Shown piece by piece: positions 28,047 through 56,859 of a stretch of 64,000 nucleotides of DNA (position 1 is its first letter; each line of letters opens with the position of its first letter). Position numbers and translations under genes: made by a program. The DNA comes from an uncultured Gammaproteobacteria bacterium (lineage in GTDB: Bacteria > Patescibacteriota > Patescibacteriia > SG8-24). The notes beneath the pieces are model-generated. The model saw nothing but the letters and a program-made list of their open reading frames with translations. It had not been told where the DNA came from and searched no databases. The stretch is from assembly GCA_964407925.1 (NCBI GenBank), contig CAYOXM010000003.1, positions 5,023 through 69,022 on the forward strand. The letters are read 5' to 3'.

Positions 28047-31253
<3,207 letters not shown>

Positions 31254-31430
31254 GGGTGAAAAATTTTTCGAAAAATTGCTGGTGTAGAGTAGCGCGGGTT
31301 CTCACCATGAGCAACCCTCCTTATCCACAACTAATTGTGTCTGTTAGTCCGAGTATACCACAAGATGTTGTGTTGCTTGTGGATAACCCTCCGTACAAAA
31401 AACGACACAAATTTACGCCTTCATCGAGCG
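31254..31430 (-). promoter_or_regulatory. nrdJ upstream region: DnaA-box-like 9-mers, extended -10, and an AT palindrome in the 5'UTR
   Basis: TTATCCACA at 31321 and TTGTGGATAA at 31377 are inverted. A degenerate TATACCACA sits at 31354. On the nrdJ sense strand this gives TG-G-TATACT (extended -10). AATTTTTCGAAAAATT lies at 31263-31278. Confidence 0.45.
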
Positions 31431-42036: not shown

Positions 42037-43535
42037 CAATGCGCGCCCTTCAGGAAATCACGCGCCTCTTCCACTGACGTGACTTCGCCGCTCAGCTGCG
42101 CCTCCTTGAGCGCCTCGAGCAGCCGACCGACGTCGGGCCCGGCCTCCATGCCGGTGATGGCCATCACGTCCTGACCGGAGGCGAGCTTCGGCGGCGCGCC
42201 GCGGCCGCCGGTCTGCCGGTCGAGCGCGGCAAGCGCCGACAGGAGCCGGCGGAGGCCGGACAGGTCGGACGTGCCGTCCGGCCGCAGGCTCGCCACGGCA
42301 TCGGCATACGCGAGGTGCAGGAGCCGGCGGCCTGCGGCGCGATCGGAAAGGAAATGCTTCACGAGCGTGGTGCGGCGCACCTCGTGCACGTTCACCGAAT
42401 TGGGCAGGAGGTGCATCTTCACGAGCCAGGCGACCCGTTCGGGACTCACGCCGGCGCTGGCCAAATGCAGCCGTTCGGCGACCTGCCGCGCGACCAGCGC
42501 ACCGGCCTCGGCGTGACCGTAAAAAGTGATGCGATCCGCGCCGTGCGCGGCGGTTTGCGGTTTCGCGACGTCGTGCAGGAGCAGCGCGATCGCCGTTTCC
42601 GCGTCAGGCGTCTCGCCGGGAAAGAGTTCCCCGAACTCGGGGCCGGCGAGCTTGCCGAGAGCGAGGCGCGTGTGCGCCCAGACGTCGCCTTCCGAATGCT
42701 GCCCGGGCGACTGCGCGCACTTGGCGAGCGGAACCAGTTCGGGAACCAGCCGGAACAGCGCGCCGCTCCCCTCGAGAAGCTCGAGCGCGTGTGCAGGATC
42801 CGCGGCGAAAGCCTTCGTCACTTCCTTCGCCACCGTCTCGAACGGTACGACCCGCTCGTGCCCGCCGCCGTCGACGGGCCTCGTCTCGTCGAGGCGCGGC
42901 ATGAGCCGGAGCATCGCCTCCCACGTGTCATGCTCGATGCCGAAACCGAGCTGGCAGGCGAAACGGATGCCGCGAAGCATGCGCGAATAGTCCTCGGCGA
43001 ACCGCTCCGCCGGATTCCGTACGGCGCGCATCAGGCCGTCCCGAAGATCGCCGACGCCGCCGAACGGATCGAGCAACGTACCCGTCCCGAGATCGAGCGC
43101 AAGCGCGTTGACCGTGAAATCGCGGCGGGACAGGTCGGCTTCCATCGCCAGATCCGGATCCGCCTGCACCGTGAAATCGCGGTACCCGCCGCTGCCGCCC
43201 GCGCGCTCGGTGCGCGGCCAGGCGATGTCGACCTCCGCGGCGACGCCCTCCGGCCGGAACTTCAGCACGCCGAAATGCCGCCCGACGAAACTCACCTGCC
43301 CGCGCTCCCCGAGCGCCTCGGCTATCTCCCGGAGCGACGCCTTCCGCACCACGACGTCAAAATCCTTCACCGGCCGGCCGAGCAGCCCGTCACGCACCGC
43401 GCCGCCGACGACGTGCCACTCCGCGTCCGGAAACTCGTCACGCAGCTCGGCAACGAACGCGAGGGCGGGTTCCATGACGAACGCGTCGGCGAGCGCGGCG
43501 GCCTTCTTGGCCATGTCCCGAGTGATGACTGCCAT
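42036..43535 (-). CDS. cca: CCA-adding enzyme / tRNA nucleotidyltransferase with HD domain
   Basis: Pol-beta NTase head (GGAVRDGLLGRPVKDFDVVV) and an HD domain (LLHDVAKP). Confidence 0.8.
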   Translation of the reverse strand: MAVITRDMAKKAAALADAFVMEPALAFVAELRDEFPDAEWHVVGGAVRDGLLGRPVKDFDVVVRKASLREIAEALGERGQVSFVGRHFGVLKFRPEGVAAEVDIAWPRTERAGGSGGYRDFTVQADPDLAMEADLSRRDFTVNALALDLGTGTLLDPFGGVGDLRDGLMRAVRNPAERFAEDYSRMLRGIRFACQLGFGIEHDTWEAMLRLMPRLDETRPVDGGGHERVVPFETVAKEVTKAFAADPAHALELLEGSGALFRLVPELVPLAKCAQSPGQHSEGDVWAHTRLALGKLAGPEFGELFPGETPDAETAIALLLHDVAKPQTAAHGADRITFYGHAEAGALVARQVAERLHLASAGVSPERVAWLVKMHLLPNSVNVHEVRRTTLVKHFLSDRAAGRRLLHLAYADAVASLRPDGTSDLSGLRRLLSALAALDRQTGGRGAPPKLASGQDVMAITGMEAGPDVGRLLEALKEAQLSGEVTSVEEARDFLKGAH

Positions 43536-43577
43536 ACCGCGAAAGTGTAGCAGTTTTCGCGCGCATTGGTGAGATGT

Positions 43578-43607
43578 TTGACAATTTGCAAACGGATTTG
43601 CAATAAT
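43578..43607 (+). promoter_or_regulatory. zur promoter: TTGACA -35, 17-18 nt spacer, AATAAT -10, overlapping the tandem palindrome TTTGCAAA-cgga-TTTGCAA
   Basis: Read directly from the sequence. The predicted transcription start is within a few nt of the ATG, suggesting a leaderless mRNA. Confidence 0.45.
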
Positions 43608-43615
43608 CAACGCGT

Positions 43616-43978
43616 ATGCACGCCTGCCCCGCCGACGAACTCATCGCGAATAACGGCCTCCGGCGTACGAAGGACCGTCACGCGCTCCTCGCGCTCTTCA
43701 GCGAAGGCCGCGCTTGGACCGCCGCGCAACTGCATCGGAAAATCCGCTCGGCGGACCTCTCGACCGTGTACCGGAACGTGAACGCGCTCGTCGCCAAGGG
43801 GATTCTCATCGAAACGCACGTGCACGGGCACGAAGCGTATTTCGAACTTGCCTCTCTCCCCCATCACGACCACCGCGTCTGTCCGAGCTGCGACGCCGCC
43901 GAATGCGTCCCCTGCCCGGGAAACCTGCCGAAAGAGCACCGTCTTGAGCTGCTCGGTACCTGCGCCGCGTGCGCCTGA
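43616..43978 (+). CDS. zur: Fur-family metalloregulator, probably Zur
   Basis: Winged helix (RRTKDRHALLALF...STVYRNVNALV) and HHDHRVCPSCD metal sites. It is adjacent to znuACB. Confidence 0.8.
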   Translation: MHACPADELIANNGLRRTKDRHALLALFSEGRAWTAAQLHRKIRSADLSTVYRNVNALVAKGILIETHVHGHEAYFELASLPHHDHRVCPSCDAAECVPCPGNLPKEHRLELLGTCAACA

Positions 43979-43982
43979 CCCC

Positions 43983-44903
43983 ATGAACCGACAAACGAAA
44001 ACCCTCGCCGTTTTCATCACGTTGACTGCCGCCGCGGTCGCGCTCGTCGTCCTGTCGTCGCCGCGGACGCCGCCGCCCGCCGCGTCGCCGCGCCGCGTCG
44101 CCGCGACCGTCTTTCCGCTCTATGACATCGTCCGCAACGTCGCGGGCGACGGCGTAACCGTATCGCTCGTGCTCCCGCCGGGCGGCGAGCCGCACTCGTT
44201 CGAGCCGACGCCGTCGACCGTACGCGACGTCGCCGCCGCATCCGCCGTCTATGCCGTCGGCCACGGCATCGACGACTGGATCGACCGCGCGCTGACGGAG
44301 GGTTCGGCAGCAAAGGTCGTCGTCGACCGAGGCATCGCGTTGCGCGCCTCGCCCGAAACCGTCGCACTCGCCGAAGGAGAGGACGAGCACGGCCCGGAAC
44401 CGGAAGACCCGCATTATTGGCTGACCGTCCCGAACGCGATGATCATCGCCGAAACGGTGGCGGACGATCTCGCCGCACGTTTCCCCGCGGACGCGGACGT
44501 TTTCCGCGCGAACCTCGCGCGGTATCGGACCGAACTCTCCGCGCTCGACGCCGACGTCCGTGCCATGCTCGACGCGGCGAAGAACAAGAACATCGTCACC
44601 TTCCACGACGCGTGGTATTATTTCGCCGAAGAGTACGGCCTCCGGATCGCCGGCACGTTCGAACCGTCCCCGGGACGCGAACCGACGGCGCGCGGCCTCG
44701 CCACGCTCAAGGAAGCGATCGACCGCAACCGCGTCCGTGCGCTCTACACGGAACCGCTGTTCAGCGACGCGGCGGTGACCGCTTTCGCCCGCGACGAAGG
44801 CGTCGTCCTCGCCGCGATCGACGACATCGGCGGCGCGCCCGGCCGCGACACCTACGCGTCACTCATGCGCTACAATGCCGAAACCATCCGCGAAAACCAG
44901 TGA
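43983..44903 (+). CDS. znuA: zinc ABC transporter substrate-binding protein
   Basis: Signal/TM segment. Cluster-9 SBP motifs are present, with an acidic His/Asp/Glu loop (EGEDEHGPEPEDPHYW). Confidence 0.8.
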   Translation: MNRQTKTLAVFITLTAAAVALVVLSSPRTPPPAASPRRVAATVFPLYDIVRNVAGDGVTVSLVLPPGGEPHSFEPTPSTVRDVAAASAVYAVGHGIDDWIDRALTEGSAAKVVVDRGIALRASPETVALAEGEDEHGPEPEDPHYWLTVPNAMIIAETVADDLAARFPADADVFRANLARYRTELSALDADVRAMLDAAKNKNIVTFHDAWYYFAEEYGLRIAGTFEPSPGREPTARGLATLKEAIDRNRVRALYTEPLFSDAAVTAFARDEGVVLAAIDDIGGAPGRDTYASLMRYNAETIRENQ

Positions 44904-45681
44904 CCGCGCCGTGCCCGAACCGATTCCGGCGCTGTCCGTGAAGGACTGCACCGTGCGGTTCGGCGACGTGAACGTCCTCGACGGCGTCGGCTTTGACGTC
45001 GCGCAGGGAGAAATCGCCGCCATCATCGGTCCCAACGGCTCCGGAAAGACGACGCTCCTCAAGACCGTCCTCGGGCTGGTGCAGCCGTCGGGCGGCGAAA
45101 TCCGCGTATTCGGAAAGCACCTGCATGCAGTCCGCAACCTCATCGGCTACGTGCCGCAACGCTTCGACTTCGACCGCGACTTCCCGATCACCGTGCGCGA
45201 ATTCATGGACCTCGCGCGCCATCAGCACTGCCCCGCCTCGCGCATCCCCGAAAAAATCCGCGAAGTCGGCCTGCCCCACAAGGCGCTCGACGCGCGGCTG
45301 GGCTCGCTCTCGGGCGGACAACTCCAGCGCGTGCTCATCGCGCAGGCCATCCTCAACAACCCCGCGATGCTCTTCCTCGACGAACCGTCGAGCGGCATCG
45401 ACGTCGCGGGCGAAGCGACGTTCTACGAGCTCATCGAGCACCTGAACGTGGAGCACGACACCACAATCTTGCTCGTATCGCATGACATCGCGATGGTCGC
45501 GGGAATGGTCGACAACGTCATCTGCGTGAACAAGAAGCTGCTCTGCTACGGACCGCCGCAGGACGCGCTGACCGTGCGCAAGATCACGGAGCTCTTCGGG
45601 CCGCAGCGGCTCTACGATCACCCGCGGCACGAGGACCGGCACGACCACGGTTCGGGCCGCGCCCATGACCACGGCCACTGA
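44875..45681 (+). CDS. znuC: zinc ABC transporter ATP-binding protein (start uncertain; possibly GTG at 44911)
   Basis: Walker A GPNGSGKTT, signature LSGGQLQR, Walker B LFLDEP. Confidence 0.8.
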   Translation: MPKPSAKTSDRAVPEPIPALSVKDCTVRFGDVNVLDGVGFDVAQGEIAAIIGPNGSGKTTLLKTVLGLVQPSGGEIRVFGKHLHAVRNLIGYVPQRFDFDRDFPITVREFMDLARHQHCPASRIPEKIREVGLPHKALDARLGSLSGGQLQRVLIAQAILNNPAMLFLDEPSSGIDVAGEATFYELIEHLNVEHDTTILLVSHDIAMVAGMVDNVICVNKKLLCYGPPQDALTVRKITELFGPQRLYDHPRHEDRHDHGSGRAHDHGH

Positions 45682-46507
45682 TATGCCCCTCATCGCGATG
45701 TTCACCTACCCGTTCGTGCAGCGCGCCTTCGCGGCGGGGCTCATGCTCGCCGTACTGCTGGCAGCGCTCGGCATTTTCGTCACGCTGAGGAAAATGGCGT
45801 TTTTCGGCGACGGCATCGCGCACTCCTCGCTCGCCGGCATCGCCATCGCGTTGCTCCTCGGCCTCGCCCCGCTCCCCGTGGCGCTCCTCTGGGGGGTACT
45901 CGTCGCGCTGGCCATCTACGCGGTCGAACGGTCGACGCGCCTGCCCTCCGACACGCTCATCGGCATCTTTTTCACGGCGAGCATGGCGCTCGGCGTGGTG
46001 CTCATGAGCTTCACGAAGGGCTACCAGCCCGAACTCGTCACGTACCTTTTCGGGAGCATCCTCGGCGTGCGACAGGCCGACCTCGTGCTCATCGTCGCGG
46101 CCGCGGCGCCCACCCTCGCCTGGCTCATCGCCTCGTTCCGCGAACTCACCTACATGTCGCTCGCCGAGGAGAACGCGCGCGTCGCGGGCGTGCCCGTGTC
46201 GTTCCACACGCTCGCGCTGTACGTCGCGCTCGCGGTCGCGACCGTCCTCGGCGTGAAGGTGCTCGGCATCGTGCTGGTGTCGGCGCTCCTGGTTCTGCCG
46301 CCCGCGACGAGCAGGATGCTCACGACGTCGTTCCGCGGCTATCTCGCCGGTTCCGTCGCGCTCGCGGTCCTCATGACCGTCGTCGGCCTCGCCGCGTCGT
46401 TCCGGTACGACCTGCCGTCGGGCGCGACCATCATCCTGACCGGCGCCGCCGTCTTCTTCATCGCGGGCATCAGCACGCGCGTCGCCGGCGCGATGCGGCA
46501 TCCCTGA
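45665..46507 (+). CDS. znuB: zinc ABC transporter permease
   Basis: Eight TM segments and ABC-3 family character. Confidence 0.8.
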   Translation: MTTATDMPLIAMFTYPFVQRAFAAGLMLAVLLAALGIFVTLRKMAFFGDGIAHSSLAGIAIALLLGLAPLPVALLWGVLVALAIYAVERSTRLPSDTLIGIFFTASMALGVVLMSFTKGYQPELVTYLFGSILGVRQADLVLIVAAAAPTLAWLIASFRELTYMSLAEENARVAGVPVSFHTLALYVALAVATVLGVKVLGIVLVSALLVLPPATSRMLTTSFRGYLAGSVALAVLMTVVGLAASFRYDLPSGATIILTGAAVFFIAGISTRVAGAMRHP

Positions 46508-46512
46508 ATCCT

Positions 46513-47346
46513 ATGAAAATCAGGAAAGTCAGCGGCGAAAGCGTCGAGTTCCGTCCCGCGAAAGTCCGCGAGACGCTCAAGCGCATCGGAGCGAAGCCGG
46601 AGACGGTCGATCACGTCATCGCGAACGTCACCAGGGCCATCACCGAAGGGATGACGACCCGCGACGTGTTCGCCATCGTGCGGCGCGAGCTCAAGAAGGA
46701 GGACCGATGCCTCGCCCACCGGTACAACCTGCGCAAGGGACTGCTGAAGCTCGGTCCCGCGGGATTCAAGTTCGAAAAATACGTCGCGGCGATACTGCAG
46801 GCCTACGAATACGAGACGTCGCTGCCGCAGGACGAGCTCGCCGGCCTGTGCGTCCGCCACGAGGTCGACGTGATCGCGAAATCGCCGAGCCGCGTGATCA
46901 TGATCGAAGCGAAATTCAGGAACCGCTTCGACGACACCGTCACGCTCAAGGACGCGATGGCGACATGGGCGCGACTCATCGACCTGCGCGAAGGGTCGAA
47001 GGCGGGCAAGAAGACGCCCTACTTCGACGAGGCGTGGATCGTCACGAACGGCCGGTTTTCCGACCGCGCCCAGCAGTTCGGCGTCTGCAAGGGCATGCAG
47101 CTGATCGGCTGGAGCACGGAAGAGGCGTCGCTCGCCCGCATGGTCGACCATGCGGCGCTCTACCCCATCACGGTGATCGACGACGTGCGCCAGTGGGAGC
47201 TCGACGGCCTCGAAAAGAAGGGGTACGTCCTGTGCCGCGAAATCGCGGAGAAAAAACCGGACGCGCTCGCGAAGCAGACCGGCATGGCGCCGGACCGCGC
47301 GGCGAAAATCGTCGCCGACTGCAAGGAAATCGTGAACATCAGTTGA
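46513..47346 (+). CDS. ATP-cone domain fused to a PD-(D/E)xK (restriction-endonuclease-like, Mrr_cat-type) domain protein
   Basis: N-terminus MKIRKVSGESVEFRPAKVRETLKRIG... is ATP-cone-like. The core HEVDVIAKSPSRVIMIEAKF fits the D...E.K pattern. It starts 6 nt after znuB. Confidence 0.55.
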   Translation: MKIRKVSGESVEFRPAKVRETLKRIGAKPETVDHVIANVTRAITEGMTTRDVFAIVRRELKKEDRCLAHRYNLRKGLLKLGPAGFKFEKYVAAILQAYEYETSLPQDELAGLCVRHEVDVIAKSPSRVIMIEAKFRNRFDDTVTLKDAMATWARLIDLREGSKAGKKTPYFDEAWIVTNGRFSDRAQQFGVCKGMQLIGWSTEEASLARMVDHAALYPITVIDDVRQWELDGLEKKGYVLCREIAEKKPDALAKQTGMAPDRAAKIVADCKEIVNIS

Positions 47347-47367
47347 CCGGGTTCGCGTGCGAAGATT

Positions 47368-47397
47368 AGAAAACGGCCCGCACTCGCGGGCCGTTTT
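47368..47397. terminator. AAAACGGCCCGC-ACTC-GCGGGCCGTTTT, bidirectional
   Basis: Read directly from the sequence. Confidence 0.6.
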
Positions 47398-47410
47398 CTT
47401 TTCCCGCCGT

Positions 47411-49876
47411 TTACTGCGCCTTTTCGCCCTGCCCCTTCATGCGCGACATGAAGCGCCAGCCGAAACCGAGCGCGACGAGCACGAGGAACGCCGTTCCGTA
47501 CAGGTAGTACCGCGCCCAGCTCGAGATCGCCGCGTCGGGCCGGACGTCGACGTCGGGCCTCAGGAAGTCCTCTTCTGACGTCGCGGCGACGGCTCCCTTC
47601 ACGAAGAACGCGAGCGGTTCGCTCTTCTTCGTGATCTTGCCGGTATCGTCCGTGACCGCGACATAGACCTCGTGCCTGCCGTCGACGACGCTGTCGGCGA
47701 GGTCGTACGCGAAGTTGCCGTTGCCGTCGGTCGTCGTCGTGAGCACCATCGGCACGTAGCTGTAGACGTACAGCAGGACCGTGGTATCCGGGGTCGCCTT
47801 GCCCTTGAGGACGTTGCTCGGCTTCGGGGACGAATCCGCCTTATTGGCGACATCTTTGTTGTCGTCATTGACTTGGCGATACCCCACGGGCGCAGGGCTG
47901 TTCGCGTCCTGACCGTCGCCATAGCAATACCCGTCACGGCAGAAGGGGTATTCGGCCGGACAATCCTTTTCAGACCGACACCGGATGATCTCGCGGTCGG
48001 TCGCGACCGGACCGGACGCGAGCGTCAAGCCGAACGATGCGTCAATTTCGCCCGCCCCGCGCGGCTGGCCGATGGCGTTGCCGAGGATGAAGGCCCTGTC
48101 TACGGACGCGAGCGAATCGAGCATGGCGGCGAACTGCGGCTGCGTCGGCTTGTCGCCCTTTTCAAAGAAGGCCTTGAGCGCGTCCCGGACCTGTTCGCCG
48201 TCGGGCGTCCCGTCGCCGTCGGTATCGGCCTTGTTCGGGTCCGTGCCGAGCCGTTTCTCGACGTCGTCTGGCAGCCCGTCCTTGTCGGCATCGAACACGA
48301 TGACTCCGGGCGCGGTCTCCTGCCCCTCCTCCTTCGAGGACGGCCACCACTTGACCTCGTCTTTCTTCTCGACACGAACCGCGACGAGAAGCGGCGCGGC
48401 GTCGCCGAGTTCCGCGAACGCGTCGCCGACCTTCTTGGTCGTGATGATCTCATCGACCTTCTTCTTGTCTTCGGCGGGAAGGTAACCGAACGTCGCGCGC
48501 GCCTTCACCGCGTCGCACGCTTCGGGCGTCAGTCCCTCGCAGCCGGGGAAGACGCCTCCTGCCTTGTCGCTCAGGTATTTCTCGCACGCCTCTTTCGTCG
48601 TGATGCCGGCGCGCGTGCAGGCATCGTCGGCATATTTCGCCTCGAGCCAAGAGGCGCAGCGCTCGGGAAGGATGCCCGCCGCAGCGCACTCGGCATTAAG
48701 CGCGCTCGCGGGAACCGCAACCGAGCCCATGAGCCCGAATCCGCCGTTGACGCCTTCCGTATCCTTCTCGAAATCCGCGGCAGCCGCCGGCGGGGCAGGC
48801 GGTGACGTGCCGTCAGTGTCGTCATCCGTGTCCTCCGCGACCCCCGCGAGCTTCTCGGCCGGTTCGCGAGAATGCTGGAGTTCCTGGGCGTCCGCCAAGA
48901 GATCGGGCGGAGGAACGCACTCCTCCAGCTGGGCCGGCGCGGGCGTCTGGACCGTCGGGCAATCGTCGACGAGCGTGCATTTCCGTTCCCGCATGCCGCC
49001 CCGACCGCACTCGCCCCATTCGGCGCACGTCCATTTGTCGGCAGTGCACGCGACGCACGTCCGCGTCACCGCGGGCTTGGCCGTCGTGACCCCGGCGCAG
49101 TCGCTTTTCAGCGTGCACGTCCGCGACTGGGAGCCTCCGCGGCACTCGCCCCAATCCACGCATGACCACAAGTCCTCCTTGCATGCCGTCTGCGGCGTGC
49201 TGCACGAGCGGGTCTCGGGCGGCCTGGGATCGTCGAAACCCGGACAATCGACGGTGAGCGTGCAGGCGCGCGCCTGCTTGCCCTCGACGGAACAGGCGCC
49301 CCACTCGCCGCAGCTCCAGGTGTCCTTGTCGCATGCCGGAACGCACGCCCGCGATTCGGAGGGTTTGGGCGTTTCGACGCCGGCGCAATCGGACCGCATC
49401 GTGCACGTACGTGACTGCGCGTAGTTGCCTGCCGCATCCTTCAGACAAATTGCCCAGTCGCCGCACGCCCAGTCGTCCGCGGTGCAGGCCGCGGCCTTGG
49501 TCGTGAACTGCCGGACGTCGGACTGCGTCGTGAGCCCGCTGGCGGTTGAGCGGACCTGATAAAAATAGGTGGTTCCCGGCTCAAGGCCCCACAACGTCAT
49601 GGCATGGCTGATCTCGGTGGTCTCGGTCTCCTCGATGGGGACGATTTTCTTGAATTCCTGGCCGAGCGACGCGGTCTTGCCGAAATTGACGACCGACGTG
49701 CTCTCGACGTTCGTCTGCCACCTGACGACGGCCGACGTGTCCGTCGTCTCCGCCTCGGCAACCGTCGGGCCGGAAACGATCTGGGGCGCGACCTGCGCGA
49801 ACGCCGAAAACGCCGTCAGCCCGACGACTGCGGCGAGCGCGGCGACGATGCGCTTCGTGATGCGGAACGAGGTCAT
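47411..49876 (-). CDS. large secreted/cell-surface protein: FN3/PAP-N-like domain, 4 tandem Cys-rich W-x-C-G-x-W-G-x-C repeats, TSP3-like Ca-binding repeats, C-terminal TM anchor
   Basis: Signal peptide. GTTYFYQV. Four repeats of about 48 aa each. DKDGLPDD...DTDGDGTPDGEQ. A C-terminal hydrophobic helix followed by basic residues. Confidence 0.6.
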   Translation of the reverse strand: MTSFRITKRIVAALAAVVGLTAFSAFAQVAPQIVSGPTVAEAETTDTSAVVRWQTNVESTSVVNFGKTASLGQEFKKIVPIEETETTEISHAMTLWGLEPGTTYFYQVRSTASGLTTQSDVRQFTTKAAACTADDWACGDWAICLKDAAGNYAQSRTCTMRSDCAGVETPKPSESRACVPACDKDTWSCGEWGACSVEGKQARACTLTVDCPGFDDPRPPETRSCSTPQTACKEDLWSCVDWGECRGGSQSRTCTLKSDCAGVTTAKPAVTRTCVACTADKWTCAEWGECGRGGMRERKCTLVDDCPTVQTPAPAQLEECVPPPDLLADAQELQHSREPAEKLAGVAEDTDDDTDGTSPPAPPAAAADFEKDTEGVNGGFGLMGSVAVPASALNAECAAAGILPERCASWLEAKYADDACTRAGITTKEACEKYLSDKAGGVFPGCEGLTPEACDAVKARATFGYLPAEDKKKVDEIITTKKVGDAFAELGDAAPLLVAVRVEKKDEVKWWPSSKEEGQETAPGVIVFDADKDGLPDDVEKRLGTDPNKADTDGDGTPDGEQVRDALKAFFEKGDKPTQPQFAAMLDSLASVDRAFILGNAIGQPRGAGEIDASFGLTLASGPVATDREIIRCRSEKDCPAEYPFCRDGYCYGDGQDANSPAPVGYRQVNDDNKDVANKADSSPKPSNVLKGKATPDTTVLLYVYSYVPMVLTTTTDGNGNFAYDLADSVVDGRHEVYVAVTDDTGKITKKSEPLAFFVKGAVAATSEEDFLRPDVDVRPDAAISSWARYYLYGTAFLVLVALGFGWRFMSRMKGQGEKAQ
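48916..49495 (-). repeat. four tandem DNA repeats of about 145 bp each, encoding the Cys-rich modules of the surface protein
   Basis: Protein-level repeats of about 48 aa with conserved Cys spacing. Confidence 0.5.
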
Positions 49877-54366: not shown

Positions 54367-54936
54367 TCAGTTCGCGGGAACGAGCGACGTGACCATGTCG
54401 GTAAGCTCCTGCCATGAAGCGACGCGCACGGCGACGCCTTCGGCATCCACGTGGCTGTTGTAGCCCCACGAAAACAACGCGCGATGCGGCACGACGCCGA
54501 CGAGCGGCTCGAGCTTGTCGATGTCGTCATCGACGTAGAAATCCAGTCCTGCCGCCGCATCCGCCTTGCTCGCGCCGTGGCCCACGCCGGTGAAATCGAT
54601 GGCGAGCCCGCGGCGGTCCGCCCATGCCCGCGCGACCTCGAGCGTTTCGCCATCGCGCGACGTGATGACGCGCACCTCGTGGCCGGCGCCGCGCAAACGC
54701 GCGATCCCCTCGAGGACGCCGGGAACCGGCTCCATCAGCTCGCCGTATTCGTGCGTGCCGTAAATCACCTGCTGAAGATGCCGGTACTGGTCATGCGTCA
54801 GGATGCCACCGCCGACGACGAGTTCCTTCTTGAACCGCTCCGGCGGGATGTCCACGCCGAAGAGCCGCTTGGCTGCCTTGCATTTGAGGTCGCCGCAGTC
54901 GGAGATGACGCCGTCGAAATCGAGGCCGATGCGCAT
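54367..54936 (-). CDS. HAD-superfamily hydrolase, NT5C (5'(3')-deoxyribonucleotidase)-like
   Basis: N-terminal DFDGVI catalytic motif, plus HAD motifs downstream. Confidence 0.5.
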   Translation of the reverse strand: MRIGLDFDGVISDCGDLKCKAAKRLFGVDIPPERFKKELVVGGGILTHDQYRHLQQVIYGTHEYGELMEPVPGVLEGIARLRGAGHEVRVITSRDGETLEVARAWADRRGLAIDFTGVGHGASKADAAAGLDFYVDDDIDKLEPLVGVVPHRALFSWGYNSHVDAEGVAVRVASWQELTDMVTSLVPAN

Positions 54937-55743: not shown

Positions 55744-56859
55744 ATGGCGAAAGACAAGTCGAAAAAAAAGACGCCCGTCGAGGACGAGCCCGAGTACGAG
55801 CGCCGCTGGGTGGTCAGGTCGATCGACCCCGACATCCGCCGCGCACCTTCGCAGCTCATTGAGCAGGGGTACTTCGACCGGACGCGCGACCTGCGCATCC
55901 GCATCATCGACGGCAAGATGTCGATCCTCGCCTGCAAGCTGGGCCGAGGCAGGGCACGGACGGAACGGCCGAAACGCACGCCGCTGTCGGTCGGGCGGTT
56001 CCTGCTCGAGTCGACGCCGTACGTGGTACGCAAACGCCGCCACGTCCGGGACGGCTGGGAAATCGATTTCTTCGAGGGACCGCTCGCGGGCCTCGTCATC
56101 GCCGAAATCGAAAAAAGGTCGCTCGCCGCGCTCGAAAAGGTGACGCTGCCGCCGTGGATTCACGACGCGGTCGAGGTGACGGAGACGCTGTCGAACCGCC
56201 TGCTCGCGCGCGTCGCCTACGACCTCGCCGGCGAGGAAGGCCCCGACCGCCCCATCCGCGAATTCCTGCCGAAGCGCGTCCCGAGCGTCGTGCTCACGGG
56301 CGGACCCTGCTCCGGCAAAAGCACGCTGATGGCCCTCTTCCGTCAGGAATACGGCGGCATCCTGCATTGCGTTCCGGAAACCGCGACCATCGTCATCGAC
56401 CAGGTCGGCGCGAAGCCGCCCGTCAACGACCCCGAGGGAATGCGGACGTTCCAGCGCGTCATCTACCGCGTGCAGAACAGCTTCGAGAAGGTCGCACACC
56501 GGCAGGCGTTCAAGGACGGCAAGAAGGCGCTCCTGCTCGACCGCGGGACCGCCGACGCCGCTGCCTACATGACAAAGGGCGTCGCCGATCTCGAACGCGT
56601 CTGCGAGACGAGGATGGACGACGAGTACGCGCGCTATGACGGCGTCATCTGCCTCGACGTTCCGCCGAAGGACGTCTACGACGCCAACAAGGCGAACAAC
56701 CCGGCGCGATCGGAAACGCACGCGCAGGCGGCGAAGCTCGGCGACCGCATCGTGAGCGCATGGGGAGACCATCCCCGCTTCCGCTTCATCCGCGGCAGCT
56801 GGGAAGAGAAGGTCGCCGGCGCCCGCGCGGCGCTCGAGGAAATCGTCGGCATCCGCTGA
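55744..56859 (+). CDS. CYTH-like (triphosphate tunnel) domain fused to a P-loop ATPase (AAA_28-like)
   Basis: N-terminus EPEYERRWVV is ExExK-like. Walker A motif VVLTGGPCSGKSTL. GGAGG Shine-Dalgarno. Confidence 0.5.
   Translation: MAKDKSKKKTPVEDEPEYERRWVVRSIDPDIRRAPSQLIEQGYFDRTRDLRIRIIDGKMSILACKLGRGRARTERPKRTPLSVGRFLLESTPYVVRKRRHVRDGWEIDFFEGPLAGLVIAEIEKRSLAALEKVTLPPWIHDAVEVTETLSNRLLARVAYDLAGEEGPDRPIREFLPKRVPSVVLTGGPCSGKSTLMALFRQEYGGILHCVPETATIVIDQVGAKPPVNDPEGMRTFQRVIYRVQNSFEKVAHRQAFKDGKKALLLDRGTADAAAYMTKGVADLERVCETRMDDEYARYDGVICLDVPPKDVYDANKANNPARSETHAQAAKLGDRIVSAWGDHPRFRFIRGSWEEKVAGARAALEEIVGIR

Follow-up and report, generated by a model that had tools for sequence, protein, structure and literature searches.

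Within the window (the whole 64-kb stretch of DNA that we analysed), a gene for a three-domain protein stands last in a unit ordered Fur-family regulator, znuA, znuC, znuB and nuclease gene, and bounded by one promoter and one terminator (Table 1). The promoter is the only strong promoter-like site within positions 43300-47700, and eight related loci share this promoter layout ahead of their Fur-family gene. The palindrome between its hexamers has a counterpart (TGCAAAT-N2-3-ATTTGCA) at the equivalent place in related loci L006-L009, L011 and L013-L015, and is likely the operator of the Fur-family repressor. We name the regulator zur by context and show it as Fur-family only, since every NCBIfam equivalog match falls below its own cut-off. 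The MntC, AztC and ZnuA matches of the substrate-binding protein are also all below cut-off, and the best match of the ATPase, to ZnuC, reaches 178 bits against a cut-off of 306. The importer is thus described as of the ZnuA/ABC-3 type, with zinc as its putative substrate.

Table 1. Features of the five-gene unit, the domains of its last product and the adjoining gene (window coordinates)
Feature	Position	Strand	Details
Sigma-70-like promoter of the five-gene unit	43578..43607	+	TTGACA, 18 nt spacer, AATAAT; 11/12 consensus positions
Inverted repeat TGCAAA-N4-TTTGCA	43587..43602	.	between -35 and -10 hexamers; likely operator
Fur-family regulator, "zur" by context	43616..43978	+	120 aa; PF01475 FUR, E 2e-14
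ZnuA-type substrate-binding protein	43983..44903	+	PF01297 ZnuA, E 1e-69; start taken as ATG 43983
ABC ATPase, ZnuC-like	44875..45681	+	PF00005, E 2e-30
ABC-3 permease, ZnuB-like	45665..46507	+	PF00950 ABC-3, E 3e-62
ATP-cone/PD-(D/E)xK/helix-hairpin-helix protein gene	46513..47346	+	277 aa; ATG at 46513, TGA ends 47346
ATP-cone domain	46513..46752	+	aa 1-80; four helices and beta-hairpin lid
PD-(D/E)xK (Mrr_cat) nuclease core	46762..47112	+	aa 84-200; E88, H116, E117, D119, E132, K134, D157, N179
Helix-hairpin-helix domain, AF1548-like_C	47161..47334	+	C-terminal; aa 217-274
GC-rich 14-bp hairpin with flanking A-run and U-run	47368..47399	.	likely bidirectional intrinsic terminator
Convergent gene	47411-49876	-	likely shares the terminator hairpin

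Spacing along the unit is tight: the regulator and znuA are separated by 4 nt, znuA and znuC overlap by 29 nt, znuC and znuB overlap by 17 nt, and 5 nt lie between the znuB stop and the nuclease start. An earlier note on this DNA had placed the nuclease gene 6 nt after znuB on the same strand with no intervening terminator, and this holds; our scan of 43300-47700 detected no promoter-like site between the two genes either, and no terminator anywhere inside the unit. No Shine-Dalgarno-like sequence was found ahead of the internal genes of the unit, and the nuclease is probably translated by re-initiation just past the znuB stop. From this layout we infer that the nuclease gene, whose GC3 is 0.88, is co-transcribed with the importer operon; its membership of a Zur regulon and its translational linkage are likewise putative. 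The strong terminator hairpin beyond the unit, absent from the earlier note, escaped a simple terminator scan and was found by folding analysis, in which the region 47340-47410 reaches -36.1 kcal/mol (z = -4.96) and none of 200 shuffles folds as well.

The earlier description of the protein as an ATP-cone fused to an Mrr-like PD-(D/E)xK domain was right about both domains and missed a third, a C-terminal helix-hairpin-helix (HhH) domain, along with the homology to AF1548. In Pfam, residues 84-198 match Mrr_cat (PF04471; 24.7 bits, above the cut-off of 21) and residues 217-274 match AF1548-like_C (PF22357; 27.6 bits, above the cut-off of 23.9). The Mrr_cat profile also matches 143 of 150 relatives, and fold comparison recovers the core alpha-beta-beta-beta-alpha-beta fold of the PD-(D/E)xK superfamily. 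The window protein is homologous to PDB 1Y88 with an E value of 1.7e-24, HhH domain included, and is a member of the AF1548-like family by sequence and structural homology. The ATP-cone match of the window protein itself (PF03477; residues 1-64, E 1.5e-4) scores 22.7 bits, below the gathering cut-off of 25.8, but the cone is confirmed by profiles, the solved homologue and fold comparison: 140 of the 150 relatives match the profile at E <= 0.01 (best 9e-12), the Criblamydia homologue scores 36.2 bits, and the four-helix bundle under a beta-hairpin lid that the fold requires is present. The three-domain architecture is well supported, and we propose that the HhH domain, which is RAD51-N-like, would hold nucleic acid irrespective of its sequence.

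AF1548 of Archaeoglobus fulgidus (PDB 1Y88) has AF1548-like_C and Mrr_cat in common with the window protein, whereas its solved chain of 199 residues begins near the nuclease core and shows no ATP-cone in the alignment. It has Q where the window protein has H116, and it keeps C133/H136 where the window clade has A/R. AF1548 is a restriction endonuclease by computational prediction only, and the D38/E51/K53 triad predicted for it corresponds to active-site residues of the window protein (PMC1821046).

The heart of the active site is HEVDVIAKSPSRVIMIEAKF (residues 116-135; 46858-46917), which contains D119, E132 and K134. We checked conservation in three independent sequence sets (150, 105 and 118 members). 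All eight core residues listed in Table 1 are fully conserved in the 105 locus-derived sequences and again in the 118 Bacteroidota-type sequences; among the 150 cluster representatives, which extend down to 28% identity, E88, E117, D119, E132, K134 and D157 are invariant and H116 and N179 are conserved at 90% or more. The D/E/K triad to which the earlier note had drawn attention (D119, E132, K134) is therefore intact throughout, and because E88 is invariant with it in all three sets, the suggestion of a regulator that had lost catalysis is contradicted. The conserved residues indicate that the window protein is an apparently active, catalytically competent PD-(D/E)xK nuclease. A strictly co-occurring cysteine pair, C113/C192, adjoins the active site. 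We also considered whether four cysteines form one metal site whose fourth ligand is swapped (C133 versus C270), and rejected this on finding no anticorrelation and two separate covarying pairs instead.

To our knowledge, every experimentally studied ATP-cone controls ribonucleotide reductases (RNRs) or the repressor NrdR. When aligned to E. coli NrdR, residues K5, F13, K17, V18 and V52 fall on adenine-pocket positions, with I3, F13, V18 and V52 corresponding to NrdR V51, F61, L66 and I108, and the adenine- and phosphate-contacting residues (lid Lys, helix-1 Lys, hydrophobic pocket) are kept. K5 and K17 are found in all 105 locus-derived sequences and in at least 90% of the 150 representatives, and position 11, aligned to the NrdR lid residue E59, is Val in the window clade and E in most of the family. 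By analogy, the cone would bind adenine nucleotides (ATP/dATP, and possibly ADP/AMP). A recent copying of the cone from the RNR of the window was rejected, BLASTP showing no similarity between the two cones.

The ATP-cone-regulated RNRs (NrdA, NrdB, NrdD, NrdJ) have a catalytic domain unrelated to the window nuclease. NrdR, a repressor of RNR genes, consists of a zinc ribbon followed by the cone, whereas the window protein has the reverse order, with a cone from residue 1 and neither a zinc ribbon nor a CxxC motif, and the partner of its cone is an apparently active nuclease rather than a box-reading DNA binder. The window protein is not an NrdR, although it may have a related mode of working. 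This last possibility could be taken further, to a nucleotide-sensing regulator in which the nuclease fold and HhH domain replace the zinc ribbon and which represses RNR or adjacent transporter genes without cutting. In one attractive version of this idea the protein would be a zinc-independent substitute for NrdR, which itself requires zinc, at times when that metal is scarce; the window gene lies in an operon putatively under Zur. In two loci (L048 and L051) the family gene overlaps or abuts the gene for an ATP-cone RNR, reminiscent of the nrdR-nrdJ operon of Streptomyces (PMC9110341). However, this adjacency is confined to one small clade, and an E88, D119, E132 and K134 set that is invariant across phyla is unexpected in a pure DNA binder. 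The promoter of the window RNR gene (nrdJ) carries two canonical NrdR-box-like palindromes, which argues for an ordinary zinc-ribbon NrdR elsewhere in the genome; no nrdR gene was found in the 64-kb window or in the related loci retrieved. We consider a non-cutting regulator of this kind quite improbable.

Ligand-gated PD-(D/E)xK nucleases are known from CRISPR and CBASS signalling, where Can1/Can2, Card1, Cap4 and NucC carry CARF or SAVED sensors. The window protein differs from them in its ATP-cone and in having no CRISPR or CBASS context, and its ligands are likely to be ordinary cellular nucleotides and not cyclic oligoadenylates. Its nuclease core resembles those of the CARF-linked Can2 and Card1, and after AF1548 the closest folds are the modification-dependent enzymes AspBHI and MspJI. 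These resemblances, the Mrr_cat domain and two plasmid-borne homologues would suit an anti-phage or anti-plasmid effector, whether an Mrr-like type IV enzyme or an abortive-infection nuclease fired by perturbed ATP/dATP pools, and a defence nuclease had indeed been suggested in the earlier note. Unlike the Mrr, MspJI and AspBHI type IV enzymes, however, the window protein has no N-terminal modified-DNA-reading domain (neither Mrr_N nor an SRA domain was found in Pfam) and no defence context, and the family gene is a widespread and stable component of small genomes. PADLOC has no family for the window protein and returns only weak domain-level matches for its relatives; tblastn against 50,697 phage records gave no homologue, viral contigs contained no relative, and a viral structure library gave single-domain matches only, with a query TM-score of at most 0.40. 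The loci examined have no restriction-modification, toxin-antitoxin or CRISPR neighbours, and hold metal, nucleotide and housekeeping genes instead. In the window clade both sequence and gene order are strongly conserved, which is atypical of defence genes and, together with the negative PADLOC, phage and viral-contig searches, argues for a housekeeping or stress role. By the tests run here, the window gene is not a defence gene, and we hold a defence function to be very improbable.

The family to which the gene belongs is large. The window protein has 839 word-indexed homologues, the family forms 883 clusters at 50% identity, and a Bacteroidota member alone has more than 7,500 relatives. Members occur in Patescibacteria, Bacteroidota, Chlamydiota and a likely archaeon, and include cultivable Bacteroidota (Pontibacter, Flavobacterium, Sporocytophaga) and a Criblamydia plasmid. 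Our literature search found no paper on this family or on its fusion of ATP-cone and nuclease, and no assayed member, AF1548 included.

The earlier note called the pairing of this nuclease with zinc uptake unexpected; a pairing with metal transport is not a one-off and recurs in separate lineages and phyla. Most family members nevertheless lie away from znu, and the adjacency has disappeared in two close relatives. An ABC-3 importer lies directly upstream of the nuclease gene in 12 loci of the window clade, and a second ABC-3-adjacent clade, only 33% identical, has importer and nuclease genes that overlap by 10 nt. Genes for CsoR, YHS or HMBD-type P-type ATPases adjoin or overlap the family gene in several further branches, and a link to an ABC-3 importer, a CsoR/CopA-type copper pump or another P-type ATPase is found in at least 8 separate branches and in other phyla; metal or cation pumps lie near the gene in the Bacteroidota loci L111-L114 and on the Criblamydia plasmid. 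The place behind znuB could nonetheless be devoid of functional meaning, the nuclease gene being simply the next one in a compact genome and riding on read-through from the importer. Unrelated genes lie close together in patescibacterial genomes, which makes short gaps weak evidence of shared function. Two loci nested in the window clade (L003 and L004) keep the gene without a znu operon, directly beside a CCA-adding enzyme gene; locus L002 lacks a Fur-family gene at the equivalent site, and its ZnuABC set is very different (~33% identity); and in lower-identity Uhrbacteria the conserved context is another one, with HU and then a LytR-like protein preceding the family gene. In several relatives 95-570 nt separate znuB from the family gene, which leaves room for a promoter of its own, and in about 70% of diverse loci there is no metal gene within 4 kb, the neighbourhoods being heterogeneous. 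Against a chance position stand the independent adjacency with overlapping genes in the 33%-identity clade, the P-type ATPase, CsoR, HMBD or YHS neighbours seen in six or more additional branches as well as in Bacteroidota and Chlamydiota, and the decay of metal and cation genes with distance: within 2 kb of the family gene their density is 5.2 per 100 kb, and at 4-8 kb it is 0.7-1.9 per 100 kb. On balance we think a meaningless position rather unlikely.

A second set of recurrent neighbours concerns nucleotides. The family gene is joined by a beta-CASP nuclease, a thymidine/AMP-phosphorylase-like protein and a PRPP synthase on a Pontibacter plasmid, a Criblamydia plasmid and a Cyclobacterium scaffold, and locus L022 carries a variant of this cassette. 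A LOG/PpnN-like gene occupies position -1 or -2 in 7 loci, and PPK2 and DeoC lie near the family gene in L112 and L113. The contact with an ATP-cone RNR gene in L048 and L051 belongs to this nucleotide setting as well. An MBL/Prs/TP triad is induced by microoxia in Bradyrhizobium (PMC6515984). Repair genes (UDG, EndoIII, PDDEXK_1, LigD_N) also recur among the neighbours, and with them comes the reading of a structure-specific DNA-repair or recombination nuclease acting on flaps, forks, junctions or mismatches, as do NucS, Hjc and XPF-type nuclease-plus-HhH enzymes. Here the ATP-cone would limit activity to suitable dNTP or energy states, and pumps would adjoin the gene since metal and oxidative stress damage DNA. 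The Hjc profile of Pfam also matches 14 of the 150 members, and some sources label relatives "Holliday junction resolvase". Apart from EndoIII and LigD_N, UDG is found directly downstream, PDDEXK_1 lies 4 nt downstream in three loci, RmuC is present in L110, and Pur_DNA_glyco and DNA_alkylation genes lie within a few kb. Family-wide, however, no one repair partner is conserved, repair genes are no more frequent than the beta-CASP/TP-like/Prs cassette and the metal pumps, and we know of no repair nuclease under ATP-cone control. A repair function, pumps and cone included, is unlikely in our estimation.

Building on the observed domains, fold, active-site and adenine-pocket conservation, operon anatomy and recurrent neighbourhoods, our best reading of the window protein is a nuclease that is gated by adenine nucleotides, serves a stress or nucleotide-economy response and is encoded in a Fur-family-regulated importer operon. 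We advance it tentatively, as plausible but still short of probable, and ligand gating, the substrate, the role in physiology and the explanation of the metal link are proposals. The gene would be transcribed fifth and last in a Fur-family-regulated ZnuABC-type importer operon. The N-terminal ATP-cone would sense adenine nucleotides and, by analogy with RNRs and NrdR, switch the nuclease on and off through changes of oligomeric or conformational state, while the HhH domain would grip nucleic acid and the PD-(D/E)xK core would cut it. The adenylate or dNTP state would thereby trigger turnover of nucleic acid into nucleotides or pentose, and the nuclease would share stress islands and operons with cation and metal pumps.

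More speculatively, the family may be an unrecognised class of ATP-cone-gated nucleases that read the adenylate/dATP state, and possibly a thiol or metal signal through C113/C192, and mobilise nucleic acid as a reserve of nucleotides and pentose in energy, oxygen or metal stress. We rate this wider proposal as doubtful, yet it would explain the wiring into pump operons and the beta-CASP/AMP-phosphorylase-like/PRPP-synthase cassette in Patescibacteria, Bacteroidota and Chlamydiota. The family is prominent in Patescibacteria, which probably rely on salvage for their nucleotides. The repeated wiring to zinc/manganese importers, copper pumps and other P-type ATPases suggests that metal or energy stress is connected with nucleic-acid turnover, a connection of which we found no description in the literature searched, and members in cultivable Bacteroidota and on a Criblamydia plasmid make the idea directly testable. 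A sensor of this type on an apparently active nuclease, in thousands of proteins, would extend the ATP-cone switch to nucleic-acid breakdown and, if true, would be its first use outside ribonucleotide reduction and its repressor.

The nuclease gene, which directly follows the znu operon in the window, is a genuine open reading frame of 277 aa running from ATG to TGA, with a third-position GC of 0.88 in a window of 66% GC. An earlier note had read it as an ATP-cone joined to a PD-(D/E)xK nuclease fold, and both domain calls are correct, as judged by Pfam (see the table), by homology to the Archaeoglobus fulgidus protein AF1548 (PDB 1Y88), and by comparison with known ATP-cones (NrdR 10.1 and 9.9, NrdB cone 9.6, NrdD 9.4) and nucleases (AspBHI 12.2, NucS 10.8, MspJI 10.4, FokI 10.0). 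A search of solved structures matched residues 90-275 to AF1548 at an E value of 1.7e-24, which became 4e-60 with the family profile. This homology, together with a third, DNA-binding domain of the helix-hairpin-helix (HhH) type at the C terminus, is new relative to that description. The protein is not an NrdR, as it lacks the defining zinc ribbon.

We assessed conservation in three independent sets: 150 cluster representatives (to 28% identity), 105 locus-derived proteins, and 118 Bacteroidota-type relatives. E88, D119, E132, and K134, as well as E117 and D157, are invariant in all three sets; H116 and N179 show no exceptions among the 105 or the 118 sequences and are ≥90% conserved among the 150. 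The Global Ocean Sampling paper (PMC1821046) predicted a triad in AF1548 to which D119, E132, and K134 correspond, and the invariance of these three residues and E88 strongly argues against the proposal that the fold has decayed into a purely regulatory domain. Within the ATP-cone, K5 and K17 are without exception among the 105 sequences and occur in at least 90% of the 150 representatives. When the family profile is aligned with Escherichia coli NrdR, K5, F13, K17, V18, and V52 pair with K53, F61, K65, L66, and I108, which a recent structural study (bioRxiv 10.1101/2025.03.28.645925) identifies as the adenine pocket, making nucleotide binding by this ATP-cone likely. The lid of E. coli NrdR reads VKS rather than KR, and the same is true of the nuclease family.

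The family also retains paired cysteines. C113 and C192, on either side of the active-site strands, are both present in 474 sequences and both absent from 13, apparently from several lineages as judged by sequence, and neither is found without the other. In the second pair, C241 varies together with a cysteine of the last helix (odds ratio of 17.5, uncorrected for phylogeny). C133 and H136 (ECKFHN motif) occur in AF1548, all Bacteroidota-type members, and most of the family, and are replaced by A and R in the window clade, the close relatives of the window protein. Together with the near-invariant H116, and with C133/H136 where these are present, the cysteine pairs could form redox or metal-binding sites.

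As a new member, the window protein joins a very large family that has been catalogued but not studied. It has 839 word-indexed homologues and 883 clusters at 50% identity (249 below an E value of 1e-30), almost all of 265-295 aa and matching over their full length, and a Pontibacter member has >7,500 relatives at an E value of ≤1e-20. One relative (locus L025) lies beside prefoldin and other archaeal-type genes. The family carries only automatic names ("ATP cone domain-containing protein," "restriction endonuclease," "ATPase," "Holliday junction resolvase"), and full-text literature searches returned no paper on the ATP-cone/nuclease fusion and nothing about what AF1548 does apart from the 2007 prediction.

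Coordinates of features in the window and in fetched loci (L handles) carrying relatives of the nuclease gene
Feature	Position	Detail
Promoter-like site, strong	43578-43607	TTGACA, 18-nt spacer, AATAAT
Fur-family gene	43616-43978	
ZnuA-type binding protein	from 43983	
ABC ATPase	44875-45681	
ABC-3 permease (znuB)	45665-46507	
Nuclease gene	46513-47346 (+)	
ATP-cone	residues 1-64	Pfam 22.7 bits, slightly below cut-off of 25.8
Mrr_cat	residues 84-198	Pfam 24.7 bits, cut-off 21
AF1548-like_C	residues 217-274	Pfam 27.6 bits, cut-off 23.9
C113 codon	46849-46851	
C192 codon	47086-47088	
C241 codon	47233-47235	
C270 codon	47320-47322	
GC-rich hairpin	47368-47399	14 bp, A and U runs alongside; common to convergent gene
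821-aa protein	47411-49876 (-)	
Class II ribonucleotide reductase	28047-31253 (-)	ATP-cone and TSCPD domain
NrdR-box-like palindromes	31325-31373 (-)	ACACAACATCTTGTGG and ACACAATTAGTTGTGG
5'(3')-Deoxyribonucleotidase, NT5C type	54367-54936 (-)	
AAA_28 protein	55744-56859 (+)	
ZnuABC set	L002 3169-7993	
Cassette	L108 1972-6597	
Cassette	L109 8001-12608	
Cassette	L112 7001-11666	
Cassette	L022 6001-10103	variant

In the window the five genes form a tight unit, with junctions of +4, -29, -17, and +5 nt in order, and the region of the closing hairpin folds at -36.1 kcal/mol (z of -4.96). The earlier statement that no terminator separates znuB from the nuclease gene holds: a scan of that interval found neither a terminator- nor a promoter-like site, and no Shine-Dalgarno-like sequence lies upstream of the nuclease gene. 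An inverted repeat, TGCAAA-N4-TTTGCA, sits between the promoter hexamers. Eight related loci (L006-L009, L011, L013-L015), nine with the window, keep the promoter and, between TTGACA and the -10 hexamer, the repeat (TGCAAAT-N2-3-ATTTGCA) 5' of the Fur-family gene. This conserved layout looks like a candidate operator of a Fur-family (Zur-like) repressor in Uhrbacteria-type genomes. The regulator and importer subunits match NCBIfam models below cut-off throughout, divided between Zn and Mn systems, so neither can be assigned to zinc. Co-transcription, translational coupling, and "Zur" control of the nuclease gene are well-motivated proposals, and the linkage in the window probably reflects real co-transcription.

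Among 20 loci encoding close relatives, 12 have znuC-znuB or the whole operon directly upstream (52-69% identity), within a wider synteny of CCA-adding enzyme, operon, nuclease gene, 821-aa surface protein, and MarC, and inheritance alone could explain the adjacency in these 12. Two loci nested in the window clade (L003 and L004) have lost the operon, and the nuclease gene there adjoins the CCA-adding enzyme gene. In L002 the downstream nuclease is 69% identical to that of the window, whereas the ZnuABC set at the same position is only ~33% identical and a PAS/GAF protein replaces the Fur-family gene, which suggests that the importer operon was exchanged while its site stayed the same. The low-GC Uhrbacteria context differs (HU, a LytR-like protein, then the nuclease gene). 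In a distant clade, whose proteins are 33% identical to that of the window, an ABC ATPase and an ABC-3 permease again come before the nuclease gene, with a 10-nt overlap in L026 and L028 and a 93-nt gap in L029.

Several loci with synteny to the window (L002, L003, L006, L009-L012, and L019) bear the labels Binatia, Gammaproteobacteria, Acutalibacteraceae, or Vicinamibacterales. Judged by gene order and closest proteins they are of Uhrbacteria/Parcubacteria type, which makes these MAG labels look unreliable. The 821-aa protein, whose gene is kept downstream of the nuclease gene in related loci, has a signal-peptide-like hydrophobic N terminus, a fibronectin/purple-acid-phosphatase-N-like N-terminal domain, several repeated cysteine-rich modules, TSP3 and Ig-like repeats, and, at its C terminus, a further hydrophobic stretch.

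We sampled 80 diverse metagenome loci and clustered the neighbour proteins. CsoR-like repressors, YHS and HMBD proteins, and HMA/HMBD P-type ATPases adjoin the nuclease gene, often with a 4- to 16-nt overlap (L034, L046, L049, L052, L053, L054, L056, L063, L088, L095), and such cases are spread over at least six separate branches of a neighbour-joining protein tree, besides the two ABC-3 clades. With the window clade excluded, ZnuA, ZnuB, CsoR, and P-type ATPase genes number 5.2 per 100 kb at <2 kb and 0.7-1.9 at 4-8 kb. A Flavobacterium locus runs HMBD, HMBD, nuclease gene, an overlapping cation P-type ATPase, and an RND efflux system; two other Bacteroidota scaffolds carry CusB/HMBD/HMA/Usp or PPK2 with a P-type ATPase, a Cyclobacterium scaffold has a metal/cation theme too, and a Criblamydia plasmid encodes, 4-7 kb upstream of the nuclease gene, CusA/CzcA together with a P-type ATPase. 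In ~70% of the diverse loci, many on short contigs, no metal/cation gene was found within 4 kb; the association is therefore recurrent but not universal. The znu linkage in the window is one case of this broader, unexplained association with metal/cation transport, to which the two cysteine pairs may be relevant.

A second set of neighbours concerns nucleotides. Plasmids of Pontibacter actiniarum and Criblamydia sequanensis encode full-length homologues, and there, as on the Cyclobacterium scaffold, the nuclease gene heads a cassette, conserved across unrelated phyla, of a beta-CASP/RMMBL nuclease, a thymidine-phosphorylase-family protein, and PRPP synthase. The phosphorylase-family protein has ~500 aa and an N-terminal extension; AMP phosphorylases also have an N-terminal extension. 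An ATP-cone-bearing ribonucleotide reductase (RNR) adjoins or overlaps the nuclease gene in L048 and L051, a LOG/PpnN-like gene lies at position -1 or -2 in seven loci, and PPK2, DeoC, phosphoketolase, glycogen phosphorylase, and acetate kinase genes occur nearby. In Bradyrhizobium diazoefficiens the other three cassette genes, as an MBL/Prs/TP triad (bll3115-3117), are induced by microoxia at the RNA and protein levels (PMC6515984). Elsewhere in the window, two NrdR-box-like palindromes, 33 bp apart start to start on either side of TATACT, precede the class II RNR gene, with no nrdR within the 64 kb; the deoxyribonucleotidase and AAA_28 genes, 7-9 kb downstream of the nuclease gene, are further window nucleotide-metabolism genes.

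The earlier observation thus stands, and its interpretation is supported in part: a defence role is unlikely, as the gene lacks the defining features of type IV restriction and of known defence systems. The most economical reading of our analysis is an active endonuclease in which the HhH domain would hold nucleic acid and the ATP-cone would gate cleavage by way of oligomerisation-based switching of the kind known from RNRs and NrdR (PMC9110341). The main rival is a repair nuclease, and genes for DNA repair (UDG, EndoIII, PDDEXK_1, and LigD_N) are recurrent neighbours. With a nucleotide-catabolic cassette, RNR, LOG, DeoC, and PPK2 genes among the neighbours, and a stress-island setting, we favour for the gated endonuclease a part in turning over nucleic acid and managing nucleotides under stress. 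Conceptually it parallels the CARF-gated Can and Card nucleases, and as a system it would be a previously undescribed variant of known ligand-gated nucleases and ATP-cone switches.
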